Shown: in pieces, positions 40,096 to 44,107 of the stretch
Position numbering within the stretch: the stretch's first letter is position 1
Layout of the letters: every line of letters begins with the position of its first letter
Assembly: GCA_015478585.1 (NCBI GenBank)
Contig: JADMIM010000008.1
Span: forward strand, 5,784 to 69,783
Direction: 5' to 3'
DNA from: Thermaceae bacterium
GTDB taxonomy: Bacteria > Deinococcota > Deinococci > Deinococcales > Thermaceae
Length of the DNA: 64,000 nt
Notes under the pieces: generated by a model
What the model was told of the DNA's origin: nothing
Seen by the model: only the letters and a program-made list of their open reading frames with translations
Database searches by the model: none
Program-made: the position numbers and the translations under genes

Positions 40096-41388
40096 CTATC
40101 CGAAGCAGTCGTAGGTGGGCCAGCTTTGGATGGTGTTGCTGGTGTTCTCGAGGGCACGTCTGAGTTCGGCGATAAAGCTCCAGTCGTTCCAGGGGCGGCT
40201 ATTGAAAAAAGCGGCCATAACAGCCCCGTTGGGCATATGCAGGAGCAGGGTGCGGCTTCCGGCCAGGGCCCCGTCGTGCGACCATTCCATGCCGCCATCT
40301 TTGAGCTGTACTTCCCAGCCCAGGGCGTAGTAACGTTCGCGTCCGATGTACTGGGGCAAGTTGGGGCGCTCGAGCATCTGGGCCAGGGTGGCCTTGGAAA
40401 GTAGCGGGGGCCGTTTGCGCAACCCCTCCAGACTGACCACAAAGCGCACCAAATCCTGTGCTGAGGCCACCAACCCACCATTGGAATCCTGGGCCTCGAG
40501 GTAAAAGTCGCCATAAGGGCGGGGGGTTTGCTGCCCGTCCAAAATTGAAGGAACCAACGGGGCGTTGGGGAAATCGTAGTAATGCACCTCGTGGGGCCAG
40601 CGCTGGCTTTCGCGGGTGTGGGCAAAGCGAATATCCCCGATGCCCACTTCGCGCAGCAGAGCGGCGGTATAGCTCTGGTAGGTTTCACCACTGGCCCTCT
40701 CGATAATGCGTCCCAGCACGGCATAGCCCAGATTGGAGTAAGACCAGCGGGTGCCTGGGGCAAAGCTCAGGTGTTTGCTCATCATGTAGCTGATTAAGTC
40801 TTGACTCGAGAGGGTGTCGGGCTTGCCCATGGCCTTGGCTACATAATCCAGGGTGGGTCTAAACATCGGGTCGCCTGCGGCATTGCGGTTCCAGCCCGAA
40901 GAATGCTGGAGCAGGTCACGCACGGTGATGTCCTTAACCCTGGGATCGGCCAGTTTGCCGCCGTAAGGCTCTAACTCGAGCAGGTTTATGGCTTTTTCGT
41001 CGAGGAAGGCGGTGAGGCTGGGATAAATCCCCTTGCGAACCAGGCTCTCGCCCAGATGCAGGGTAGCAACTGCGGTGACGGGCTTGGTCAGGCTGGCCAG
41101 CCGGAACAGCGAAGTCGGCTGCACGGCCTCTTTGGCGGCAATATCGGCCCAGCCATAACCTCTCGAGAGCACCAGCCGCCCGCTTTTGGCGACGGCCAGG
41201 GCTGCACCGGGAATCCGGTATTTCTCGAGCAACCGGGTCATGATTTGGTCGTAGGGCTCGAGGCCGGAAGCACCGTAGCCAGTGATGGGCTTGTTGTCTT
41301 TGCCAAAGAAAGAAACCGGGGGAGGAACACAGATGGTCTGGGCCAGCCCCAGACTCCACAGCACGAAGACCATAGAAAGCCAGCGCAT
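40096..41388 (-). CDS. Secreted serine hydrolase, beta-lactamase/class C-like family
   Basis: Signal peptide, FRLASLTK (SxxK), LLQHSSG, YSNLGY, HDGALAG. Confidence 0.88.
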   Translation of the reverse strand: MRWLSMVFVLWSLGLAQTICVPPPVSFFGKDNKPITGYGASGLEPYDQIMTRLLEKYRIPGAALAVAKSGRLVLSRGYGWADIAAKEAVQPTSLFRLASLTKPVTAVATLHLGESLVRKGIYPSLTAFLDEKAINLLELEPYGGKLADPRVKDITVRDLLQHSSGWNRNAAGDPMFRPTLDYVAKAMGKPDTLSSQDLISYMMSKHLSFAPGTRWSYSNLGYAVLGRIIERASGETYQSYTAALLREVGIGDIRFAHTRESQRWPHEVHYYDFPNAPLVPSILDGQQTPRPYGDFYLEAQDSNGGLVASAQDLVRFVVSLEGLRKRPPLLSKATLAQMLERPNLPQYIGRERYYALGWEVQLKDGGMEWSHDGALAGSRTLLLHMPNGAVMAAFFNSRPWNDWSFIAELRRALENTSNTIQSWPTYDCFG

Positions 41389-41532: not shown

Positions 41533-41898
41533 ATGAGCACTGAGGTGATGCACCACCGCCGCAATACATATTGGCAGCCGCTGCGGCTCCTGCCCTTTTT
41601 GGTGTTGCTGCTGCTCTCGAGCACCGAGGCCCGGCATTTGCTGGGCAGTGTGCTTCAGCCAATCCACCCCCAGGTGGTTTGCTATAGCCAGCAGGACTGC
41701 ACTAAAGCCGGGCCAGTACAGGCTGCGGCAATGCGCCAACCATTGGCCCTGCCCACCCCGCCTTCGGCAATCCTCCCACTGGCTCAGACTTTATATTGCT
41801 CGAGCCGCAAAAATTCCTCCATCACTCTGGCTCGAGCCGGTTTCCGAAATATATTTCTCCGGGTCGGGGGGCCGAGGGCTCCGCCTGTGCGGGCCTGA
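41533..41898 (+). CDS. Upstream ORF with signal-peptide-like segment and C-terminal RAPP: candidate ribosome-arrest peptide
   Basis: LRLLPFLVLLLLSSTEA hydrophobic segment; ends FLRVGGPRAPPVRA*; 47 nt upstream of lepB on the same strand. Confidence 0.6.
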   Translation: MSTEVMHHRRNTYWQPLRLLPFLVLLLLSSTEARHLLGSVLQPIHPQVVCYSQQDCTKAGPVQAAAMRQPLALPTPPSAILPLAQTLYCSSRKNSSITLARAGFRNIFLRVGGPRAPPVRA

Positions 41899-41945
41899 CC
41901 TCAGCCAACCTGTTAAGCCTCTTTTCTCCTACAGGAGTCCATTTC

Positions 41946-42686
41946 ATGTTGCAAAACCCCGATGTTGTCATCGAAAAACCTTCCTTTGTGCGCTACTTCT
42001 GGCTCGAGTGGCTGCGCCCAATCGGCGAAGCCCTGCTGTTGGCGCTGCTCATCACCACGTTTGCTTTTACCACGGTAGGGGTGCTGGGCAGCAGCGACGA
42101 ACCCACCTTGCACTCGGGTGAGCGGCTGTTCGTACCCAAATACCAGACCTGGCTGCACCGCTTTGGTATCGGCAGTTTTCACCGGGGCGATTTGGTGGTG
42201 GTACGGCCCCCCTCCTCGTCGCCCTATGCGGTTCAGCCCTTGCCGTTTCTGGGTCAGTTGGGCGCGACCTTCCGGCCCTTCTTTATCAAGCGCATCGTGG
42301 GCTTGCCAGGAGACCGTCTGCGCATGGTGCAAGGGCAGCTATATATCAACGGCAAGGCTGTAAACGAAAGCCACACAGTTCCCTACTGGCAGGCTAAGGG
42401 CCAATGGGATCAGTCCTCGAGCCTGGCAAACTCCGATACCTGGACTTTTCGCAAGGGACAAATAGGAGAGTTTGCAGTGCCCCAGGGGATGTATTTCGTG
42501 ATGGGGGATAACCGTAGTCCGGGAGGCTCAGAAGACTCGAGGGATTTTGGCCCAGTGGCCCTCAACCAAATCGGTGGGCGGGCTAGTTTCATGCTTTGGC
42601 CTCCGCTCACCCGCGACACCAATGGGCATTGGCAGCTTAATTGGCATCCCATGCGAGCCCCCCAGGGCTTGCAAGGTATTCGGTAA
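41946..42686 (+). CDS. lepB: Signal peptidase I
   Basis: TM anchor, VLGSSDEPTL (Ser box), RGDLVV, FIKRIVGLPGD (Lys), YFVMGDNR..SEDSRDFGPV; AGGAG RBS at 41933-41937. Confidence 0.9.
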   Translation: MLQNPDVVIEKPSFVRYFWLEWLRPIGEALLLALLITTFAFTTVGVLGSSDEPTLHSGERLFVPKYQTWLHRFGIGSFHRGDLVVVRPPSSSPYAVQPLPFLGQLGATFRPFFIKRIVGLPGDRLRMVQGQLYINGKAVNESHTVPYWQAKGQWDQSSSLANSDTWTFRKGQIGEFAVPQGMYFVMGDNRSPGGSEDSRDFGPVALNQIGGRASFMLWPPLTRDTNGHWQLNWHPMRAPQGLQGIR

Positions 42687-43038: not shown

Positions 43039-43374
43039 GTGCGCTCCAATCTGACCCCCCCGCGTGTGGCTCATGCCCTCACCCTGGCGGGAATTATTGG
43101 AGCTGCTTGGTTTTACCTCGTCCAGCATAACGAGTTCGGCATTGCCCTGGCGGTGACAACCCTGGTGGGCAGTGGGGTGGTGCAGTATGGCAGCGGCAAG
43201 CCCTTCGTGGTTCCACTGCTGCTAATTTTGCTGATTTTGCTGGTGGGGGTTCAGCTCGTGGACGGGAAATTGGTGGCGGCCCTGATTGGTGCAGGGCTGG
43301 GAACCGGGCTACCCTATTTGGCCTATCGAAGGAGCAAACATGAAAGTAGCGCTTCTCCACCTGGCAACCCGTGA
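43039..43374 (+). CDS. Small multi-pass membrane protein
   Basis: Four hydrophobic segments; GTG start 7 nt after the previous stop. Confidence 0.6.
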   Translation: MRSNLTPPRVAHALTLAGIIGAAWFYLVQHNEFGIALAVTTLVGSGVVQYGSGKPFVVPLLLILLILLVGVQLVDGKLVAALIGAGLGTGLPYLAYRRSKHESSASPPGNP

Positions 43375-44107
43375 AACCCCTCAAGCTACCCTCGAGGCGG
43401 CTATGCCACTCCTCCAGCAGGCCTGGCAGCAAGGTGCGGATTTGGCCTTGCTGCCCGAACTTTTCCCCAGTGGCTACCGCTATGCCGATGCCGAGCAAAC
43501 CCCCTGGGTTCTCTCGAGGTTGCAGCACTTTGCCCAGGAATCGAAGATGCTGTTGGCGGGGGGGGTTCTGGAGCAAGCAGGCCAGCGCTATGCCAATCGG
43601 ATGTATGTCCTGGGGCCACAAGGCCCACTGGCTCATTACACCAAAACCCACCTGATTCCGGCATTTGGCGAGCCCGAGACCATGATTGCCGGAAACCAAC
43701 TGGTGACGCTCGAGCTGCACGGATTCAAGGCCGGACTCAGCATCTGCTTCGACTTGCGCTTTCCCGAGATATACCGGGCTTACGCGGTGGACGGGGTGAA
43801 CTTGTTCTTGGTGCCCTCGGCTTGGCCGGGGAGCCGCAGCTACGCTTGGGAATTGCTCGCCAAAGCCAGGGCTGCTGAGAATCAGGCCTACTTGATTGCC
43901 GTCAACCATGCCGAGGAGCCTTTTGGTGCGCCCAGTCTGGCCCTCGATCCCTTGGGAATGGAACTGGCTCGAGTCGAGTCGGAGGGGGTCGCGGTAGTGG
44001 AACTCGAGGCCGGTTATCCCCAGCGGCTGCGCAAGGAGTTTCGGGTATTGTCTGAGCGTCGCCCAGAACTTTACGCGGGTCTTCTGAAAAGACCGGCAAT
44101 CAAATAA
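43340..44107 (+). CDS. Carbon-nitrogen hydrolase (nitrilase superfamily)
   Basis: Triad motifs LPELF, YTKTHL and ICFDLRFPE; KARAAENQ; GGAG RBS. Confidence 0.88.
   Translation: MKVALLHLATRETPQATLEAAMPLLQQAWQQGADLALLPELFPSGYRYADAEQTPWVLSRLQHFAQESKMLLAGGVLEQAGQRYANRMYVLGPQGPLAHYTKTHLIPAFGEPETMIAGNQLVTLELHGFKAGLSICFDLRFPEIYRAYAVDGVNLFLVPSAWPGSRSYAWELLAKARAAENQAYLIAVNHAEEPFGAPSLALDPLGMELARVESEGVAVVELEAGYPQRLRKEFRVLSERRPELYAGLLKRPAIK

Follow-up and report, generated by a model that had tools for sequence, protein, structure and literature searches.

Does the small open reading frame (ORF) that precedes a signal peptidase gene in a Thermaceae genome encode a peptide that halts its own ribosome and thereby controls the enzyme encoded beside it? 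The question is raised by a stretch of 64,000 nucleotides (contig JADMIM010000008.1 of assembly GCA_015478585.1, positions 5,784 to 69,783), referred to here as the window, in which an upstream ORF (uORF) stands directly before lepB2, a gene for an accessory type I signal peptidase. The original prediction, made from the letters of the sequence, described an ORF of 121 codons with a signal-like N-terminus, a spacer and an RAPP-VRA end, followed after 47 nucleotides by lepB. Coordinates and translation agree with this description, and the gap before lepB2 holds a Shine-Dalgarno (SD) sequence of its own. Here, the uORF and its neighbour were compared with their relatives, and the results indicate that the uORF is probably a cis-acting leader of the RAPP-type monitoring-substrate kind that controls lepB2. 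A secreted-type peptide ending in RAPP stands before lepB2 and the pairing is conserved; the peptide is therefore a probable self-stalling leader. The stall itself, the event that would release it and its transmission to lepB2 are steps that we infer by analogy with known systems.

The product of the uORF reads MSTEVMHHRRNTYWQPLRLLPFLVLLLLSSTEA up to the predicted cleavage site, continues with RHLL and runs to FLRVGGPRAPPVRA before the stop codon, the C-terminal part being FLRVGGP-RAPP-VRA-stop. The N-terminus is basic (HHRRN...R18, with R9, R10 and R18) and leads into the hydrophobic core LLPFLVLLLL, and the c-region S-S-T-E-A places small residues at -3 and -1, so that cleavage between A33 and R34 is predicted by sequence rules. 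A Tat signal was rejected because the arginine pair of the window is not conserved and no Tat consensus is present. The spacer of the window peptide carries a pair of cysteines, Cys50...Cys57, that is common to other RAPP-type subfamilies. Translation may begin instead at ATG 41548 (Met6), which would give 116 amino acids and matches the alignment start of the Meiothermus homologues; the frame and the features described are unaffected either way.

That the uORF is a real gene is shown by its homologues, of which about 70 were recovered from two families of Deinococcales. All of them lie directly upstream of an S26 peptidase gene within flanking contexts that are otherwise unrelated, and the same layout of signal peptide, spacer of fixed length, XAPP motif (X being the residue before A-P-P) and S26 peptidase recurs in every one. 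Judged by comparison of the sequences, this recurrence is far beyond what chance would produce. A search of the tblastn type with the peptide gave clear homologues in two other genomes of the same genus. Inspection of regions upstream of lepB revealed the uORF in six genomes, five of the Meiothermus type and one of an uncultured Deinococcales organism, and these six uORFs end in ...P-RAPP followed by 3-16 residues. In the second family of Deinococcales, a related ORF ending in ...F-D-A-L/T-A-P-P plus 1-4 residues is situated shortly before the peptidase gene. Among 5.8 billion proteins, a profile search yielded 52 members, and an exhaustive search of 1.84 billion representatives with a hidden Markov model yielded 20 clusters (50% identity), all of the lepB-linked type with A-P-P. 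The four members picked for diversity all adjoin a Peptidase_S26 gene, and their flanks differ: on the upstream side stands an FGGY kinase, an esterase, RNase Y or a diacylglycerol kinase, on the downstream side OTCase, PrmC or an S8 protease. Seven more genomes display the same arrangement of uORF and peptidase. Across the phylum, 22 of 364 genomes, from 6 of 60 genera, carry the module, within the two families only and as one copy per genome. It is present in M. granaticius NBRC 107808, a named strain that is probably obtainable in culture. Upstream of 75 more distant LepB relatives no convincing RAPP-type uORF was found. The expectation that the regions upstream of lepB in relatives would hold a conserved signal-plus-RAPP uORF is thus borne out, in the form of a two-gene module with an invariant A-P-P.

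What the peptide conserves, and what it does not, is informative about its possible role. An alignment of 42 sequences that share 13-40% identity with the window peptide has just five invariant columns, namely Trp14, Ala33, Ala116, Pro117 and Pro118, while Arg18 is near-invariant. The residue before A-P-P in 57 sequences is Leu in 38, Arg in 16, Thr in two and His in one, and Gln occurs in further members. The XAPP motif sits 1-16 residues from the stop codon in every homologue, with a tail of 1-4 residues in 50 of the 57. The codon for the motif arginine varies among homologues (AGG, CGA, AGA and CGT), as do the alanine and proline codons, and this variation implies selection on the peptide rather than on the RNA. 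The distance from the cleavage site to A-P-P is 76-84 residues in all 55 scorable sequences (83 in the window) and is nearly constant within each subfamily (78, 81, 84 and 83-84), while the sequence of the spacer is largely unalignable between subfamilies. It has been reported that Sec-linked arrest peptides possess long and variable spacers and that those linked to YidC display a narrow distribution for geometric reasons (Fujiwara et al., PMC10987492). The narrow distribution of spacer length in the present family, read from the sequences, likewise points to a geometric constraint. The P1' residue is Arg, Gln or His in 55 of 55 scored sequences, and Arg, Gln, His or Asn over all those examined. 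An AlphaFold2 model built with the family alignment reached a predicted local distance difference test (pLDDT) of 57 and a predicted template modelling score (pTM) of 0.20, the signal helix at residues 15-40 being its sole structured element; a folded mature domain was rejected on the low confidence of this model. Compared with a metagenomic relative of 97.8% identity, the uORF carries 5 synonymous and 7 non-synonymous substitutions, of which four of the seven non-synonymous ones fall in the spacer and none in the signal core, the cleavage site or PRAPP. The corresponding comparison for lepB2 gave 8 synonymous changes and none that is non-synonymous, and the region between the two genes carries no substitution at all.

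Two subfamilies have features of their own. The largest has a strictly conserved F-D-A-L-A-P-P end (loci L104, L107, L109, L111, L116, L118 and L120; P0002-P0052). In the L024-type subfamily (P0005, P0014, P0017-P0024, P0056 and P0061), a hydrophobic segment of about 17-20 residues, for example LEFFVPVAILVFVPVVF, stands directly before ...RTRQPRAPP and would lie inside the exit tunnel at arrest.

The motif of the window peptide is scarce elsewhere in its genome. Among ORFs of at least 250 amino acids, with the expectation calculated from composition, RAPP was observed 4 times against 22 expected and RGPP twice against 19, a depletion of 5-10 fold; the related tetrapeptides gave 26 against 36 for AAPP, 17 against 32 for AGPP and 11 against 20 for EAPP. 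Proteome-wide avoidance of the translation-impeding RAPP and RGPP has been reported (PMC12992588). The whole genome was also screened for ORFs of 50-300 amino acids that have a hydrophobic segment at least 30 residues before a C-terminal RAPP-like motif. Five pass this screen, and besides the uORF only one looks genuine. It is located on contig C208 (27141-27515, minus strand) and encodes 124 amino acids with a hydrophobic N-terminus, a histidine-rich middle part, HRHHATPKTHSHLEHC, and the end ARGPPQG followed by the stop codon, resembling the metal-related RGPP uORFs of Fujiwara 2025. It is followed on that strand, after 457 nucleotides, by an ORF of 458 amino acids whose product appears by eye to be metallo-beta-lactamase/beta-CASP-like, with an HxHxDH-type motif.

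The identity of the downstream gene was part of the original prediction, in which the regulated gene is the signal peptidase itself. The product of lepB2 scores 142 bits with PF10502 (E = 2e-41, cut-off 22.9) and 133 bits with TIGR02227 (cut-off 47). It possesses the catalytic dyad of Ser50 (42093-95) in G-S-S-D-E-P-T-L and Lys115 (42288-90) in F-F-I-K-R-I-V-G, together with the GDNRxxSxDSR box, and is assigned by these sequence features to the bacterial type I signal peptidases of S26A P-type. The genome encodes two S26 peptidases, however: LepB1, on another contig, C10, has the box B sequence N-S-M-N-P and a large insertion and recurs in all the sampled Meiothermus genomes that are adequately complete, while lepB2 was found in only two of 24 genomes of the same genus, both of them carriers of the uORF. 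The class of the enzyme therefore stands as predicted by profiles and dyad, and its standing in the cell needs to be revised, since LepB2 is the accessory paralogue beside the housekeeping LepB1. One residue distinguishes it further. Asp51 (42096-98) stands where solved signal peptidases carry Met, so that box B reads S-D rather than S-M. In the structures of the E. coli enzyme by Paetzel, the Met beside the nucleophile is said to line the S1 pocket. The Ser-Asp pair is present in all uORF-linked peptidases examined, 15 in the phylogenetic tree and others besides; among 80 LepB relatives it is confined to the five with a uORF and occurs in none of the other 75, which have Met or, rarely, Leu or Ser. 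The 15 S-D enzymes group as a single clade in the maximum-likelihood tree, with an ultrafast bootstrap value of 93 and a Shimodaira-Hasegawa approximate likelihood ratio of 88 (94% of bootstrap trees), apart from Meiothermus LepB1 and from the enzymes of Deinococcus and Trueperaceae, and the branching inside the clade mirrors the two host families. In the second family, RAPP-bearing members are the earliest to diverge in the LepB tree, and those with QAPP and LAPP are derived. Taken with a P1' position that is always Arg, His, Gln or Asn, the Asp next to the catalytic Ser suggests a co-adaptation of enzyme and substrate.

On the basis of these observations, a course of events can be proposed for the leader. 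The uORF would be translated, and its signal peptide would target the nascent chain to the Sec translocon. With the stall geometry borrowed from the structures of ApdA and ApdP (PMC10951233), codon 41881-83 would occupy the P site, and Arg115-Ala116-Pro117, with Pro118-tRNA in the A site, would block formation of the peptide bond as in those peptides. At that point about 84 residues would separate the cleavage site from the peptidyl-transferase centre. Given this distance, the cleavage site and about the first 25 mature residues, including Cys50 and Cys57, would already be exposed on the outer face of the membrane. As these residues would be outside the conduit formed by ribosome and translocon, the chain could be a substrate of signal peptidase while still tethered. 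Productive export of the nascent chain, its processing, or both would then free the arrest, and if either became limiting the stall would last longer and more LepB2 would be synthesized. The uORF also resembles the peptides sought by the published searches for monitoring substrates (PMC10987492): it is small and of unassigned family, its product begins with a signal and ends near a conserved motif, with more than 30 residues of spacer between the two, and the uORF lies upstream of a gene for protein localisation, lepB extending the published set of sec and yidC targets. By its R115-A-P-P118, followed by three residues and the stop codon, the window peptide falls in the RAPP-like (RQH) class, to which RAPG and RAGP ends also belong, as do relatives with RAPP, QAPP and HAPP; the majority subfamily, with LAPP or TAPP, is outside it. 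Finally, an extra LepB2 beside a ubiquitous LepB1 parallels, by analogy, the pairs MifM-YidC2, VemP-SecDF2 and ApdA/ApdP-SecDF2 (PMC7897499).

The features of the module are collected in the table below.

Features of the uORF-lepB2 module in the window (positions of the 64,000-nucleotide stretch)
Feature	Position	Strand	Basis or remarks
uORF, candidate arrest peptide of 121 amino acids	41533..41898	+	ORF list; homologues upstream of lepB2
Signal peptide core	41572..41631	+	Trp14 (41572-74), Arg18, L19-L28, S-S-T-E-A, Ala33 (41629-41631)
Spacer, mature part to Pro114	41632..41874	+	Length fixed, sequence weakly conserved
RAPP motif, Arg115-Ala116-Pro117-Pro118	41875..41886	+	Codons AGG GCT CCG CCT
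GGGCTCC within the R-A-P codons	41876..41882	+	7 base pairs (one G-U) with GGAGTCC 41934-41940, including the SD
Tail V-R-A and TGA stop (41896-41898)	41887..41898	+	Tail of 1-4 residues typical of homologues
Intergenic region of 47 nucleotides with SD of lepB2, AGGAG (41933-41937)	41899..41945	+	Sequence
lepB2, accessory signal peptidase I, 246 amino acids, ATG 41946	41946..42686	+	PF10502 and TIGR02227
Two small ORFs with several transmembrane segments, 104 and 111 amino acids	42717-43031, 43039-43374	+	ORF list

Several results weigh against a leader of this kind. The signal peptide and its cleavage site are recognised purely by sequence rules. Most members of the family end in LAPP and not in RAPP, and the arginine is reported to be irreplaceable in ApdA, ApdP and SecM (PMC12992588); either the LAPP members stall in a different manner or the conserved A-P-P serves another purpose. 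The route from a stall to lepB2 is a further difficulty. Each lepB2 of the family has its own SD, with the start codon 12-151 nucleotides beyond the stop codon of the uORF, and the distance from RAPP to the lepB2 start is 71-75 nucleotides in five of six modules of the Meiothermus clade. Minimum free energy and partition-function folds at 37 and 55 °C, calculated first for 9 modules and later for 6, both with the footprint of a stalled ribosome and without it, displayed no consistent masking of the SD that a stalled ribosome could relieve. RNAalifold gave 0 consensus pairs for the six intergenic regions of the Meiothermus clade, and no intrinsic terminator or attenuator was found between uORF and lepB2. 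The complementarity of the RAPP codons to the ribosome-binding site listed in the table has an RNAduplex energy of -17.0 kcal/mol, the best of all segments of the window uORF, and the complementarity of stall site and ribosome-binding site ranks in the top 10% for 6-7 of 16 modules against about 1.6 expected, being absent in the rest. The ensemble folds do not favour the pairing of RAPP codons and SD, which is not conserved across modules, and the enrichment may be a by-product of C-rich Ala and Pro codons. Sequestration of the SD was therefore not adopted as the mechanism, as the folds are inconsistent and the complementarity is limited to those 6-7 modules. For ApcA, ApdA and ApdP, the same gap has been reported in the link between the stall and the downstream gene (PMC7897499).

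The same observations have also to be compared with other explanations. It is hardly credible that the uORF is a chance open frame in GC-rich intergenic DNA with a coincidental RAPP. Such a view could draw on the product, which no Pfam or NCBIfam model matches, on the failure to find a consensus sigma-70 promoter upstream of the uORF at the search threshold, and on the relaxed ratio of non-synonymous to synonymous changes to the close relative described above; but frame, length, signal peptide and XAPP have been kept over two families at the low identities of the alignment, with synonymous turnover of the motif codons, and by these comparative data the idea is effectively refuted. A leader that arrests or attenuates without regard to secretion, either constitutively or in response to proline-tRNA, elongation factor P (EF-P) or temperature, with the signal serving only to localise mRNA and chain to the membrane where LepB2 inserts, is decidedly improbable. 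XPP motifs, APP included, are classic EF-P-dependent pause sites, and pausing of this type would cover the LAPP and TAPP members too. A precedent is given by CruR, a RAPP-type uORF that answers to copper and not to export (PMC12992588). Nevertheless, the invariant Ala at the cleavage site, the conserved Trp and Arg of the n-region and the fixed distance of 76-84 residues are hard to explain on such terms, and RAPP arrests are reported to be resistant to EF-P (PMC12992588).

A third alternative casts the peptide as a secreted substrate or partner dedicated to LepB2, with A-P-P acting after translation in recognition, sorting or stability, and with neither arrest nor regulation of lepB2. It agrees with the strict linkage to one LepB clade that has Asp for Met beside the catalytic Ser, with the unusually conserved cleavage region (invariant Ala at -1, P1' limited to Arg, Gln, His or Asn), with the subfamily that has a hydrophobic segment right before the motif, and with the predominance of LAPP, which is outside the set tested as arrest-competent (PMC12992588). 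Set against this, no fold is predicted for the mature part, which drifts freely in sequence; A-P-P, the sole invariant mature residues, stand 1-4 residues from the stop codon, the signature position of an arrest motif (PMC12992588); the motif in the window is the canonical RAPP, otherwise avoided in the genome; and a fixed length with a free sequence fits a ruler better than a functional domain. We consider this explanation unlikely. There is a further version, in which the peptide does arrest and is a length-calibrated, dedicated substrate of LepB2, and it may be entertained tentatively, although it remains doubtful. The spacer would park the A/R site at the active site during the RAP/P stall, only cleavage by LepB2 would release the ribosome, and FDALAPP would be an Arg-independent arrest sequence. 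The Asp of LepB2 may then pair with Arg, His or Gln at P1', and the module would be an autoregulatory sensor of processing rather than of translocation.

The monitoring-substrate leader, which is preferred here, has its closest counterparts in ApdA and ApdP, the RAPP arrest peptides that precede secDF2 in Actinomycetota and Alphaproteobacteria (PMC7897499; PMC10951233). As in those peptides, an N-terminal Sec signal and a non-conserved spacer precede an R-A-P-P that is a few residues from the stop codon, the gene directly after the uORF encodes a protein-localisation factor that is a secondary paralogue, and no SD-sequestering hairpin is predictable for them either (PMC7897499). In contrast to them, the downstream gene encodes signal peptidase I and not SecDF, and the spacer is fixed at 76-84 amino acids, whereas the spacers of Sec-linked peptides vary widely. 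Homology to ApdA, ApdP or SecM was not found: the profile searches of 5.8 and 1.84 billion sequences gave only lepB-linked peptides of Deinococcales, and no direct pairwise comparison with ApdA or ApdP was made. Other members of the motif class are found upstream of further genes: RQH-family uORFs (R/Q/H-A/G-P-P) precede secA or secDF (Fujiwara 2024, PMC10987492), and RAPP/RGPP small ORFs, CruR among them, precede genes for TonB receptors, copper factors, YcnI and DsbA-like proteins (Fujiwara 2025, PMC12992588). The present family resembles these in the motif class, with Arg, Gln or His before A-P-P near the C-terminus of a small secreted protein, in the patchy and lineage-restricted distribution and in the proteome-wide avoidance of the motif; it differs in that the largest subfamily, F-D-A-L-A-P-P, has Leu for the reportedly irreplaceable Arg. 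In SecM-secA, VemP-secDF2 and MifM-yidC2, a substrate of the pathway stalls its own ribosome and controls the next gene, as is proposed here, and what VemP and MifM control is a back-up paralogue, comparable with the accessory lepB2. Those peptides have other arrest sequences, the defined mRNA hairpin that masks their SD is not evident here, and the activity controlled would in this case be signal-peptide processing rather than translocation or insertion. Bacillus subtilis encodes, in its tapA-sipW-tasA operon, a signal peptidase beside the substrates to which it is dedicated. The present module is similar in that an accessory signal peptidase is linked with a small secreted protein whose cleavage region is conserved; unlike LepB2, which is P-type (Ser-Lys) and whose neighbour has no predicted fold, SipW is of the endoplasmic reticulum type (Ser-His), with folded structural neighbours.

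As for novelty, the texts of PMC10987492 and PMC12992588, and 80 supplementary files, do not name signal peptidase as a downstream gene, and full-text literature searches gave no report of a published uORF pairing of arrest peptide and signal peptidase. The original prediction likewise knew of no description of this pairing, and it placed the known RAPP-type peptides upstream of secA, secDF or yidC, the only genes that the published searches covered (PMC7897499, PMC10987492).

The surroundings of the module deserve a short description. The two small ORFs with several transmembrane segments trail lepB2 by 30 nucleotides and are separated from each other by a gap of 7 nucleotides; M. granaticius has the same order. 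They have no significant Pfam match, and the module of the other family lacks them; they probably share the lepB2 operon in Meiothermus only. Before the uORF, a divergently transcribed, secreted serine hydrolase of the beta-lactamase family (PF00144) occupies 40096-41388 on the minus strand; on the lepB2 side, a carbon-nitrogen hydrolase (PF00795) is located at 43286-44107 on the plus strand. In other Meiothermus genomes, the upstream neighbour is an ORF of 429-438 amino acids that by eye is threonine synthase-like, or one of 338 amino acids that is homoserine dehydrogenase-like. Since the neighbours differ among Meiothermus genomes, the module has evidently moved.

In kind, the element belongs to the known RAPP-like arrest peptides. 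It goes beyond the known examples in having a processing enzyme as target, a spacer of fixed length, and a co-evolving Ser-Asp clade of peptidases with a transition of the motif from Arg to Gln or Leu. The characterised secretion-monitoring arrest peptides all control factors of translocation or insertion, namely SecA, SecDF and YidC. If the proposal is true, feedback by the nascent chain extends to the processing step, and the module is a natural system in which to ask if a chain still tethered to the ribosome can report its own cleavage; should the peptide be a length-calibrated substrate of LepB2, it would be the first 'processing monitor'. RAPP has apparently been replaced by QAPP or LAPP within one lineage. 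If the FDALAPP subfamily stalls ribosomes, it would provide an Arg-independent XAPP arrest sequence with which modification of the RAPP mechanism could be studied.

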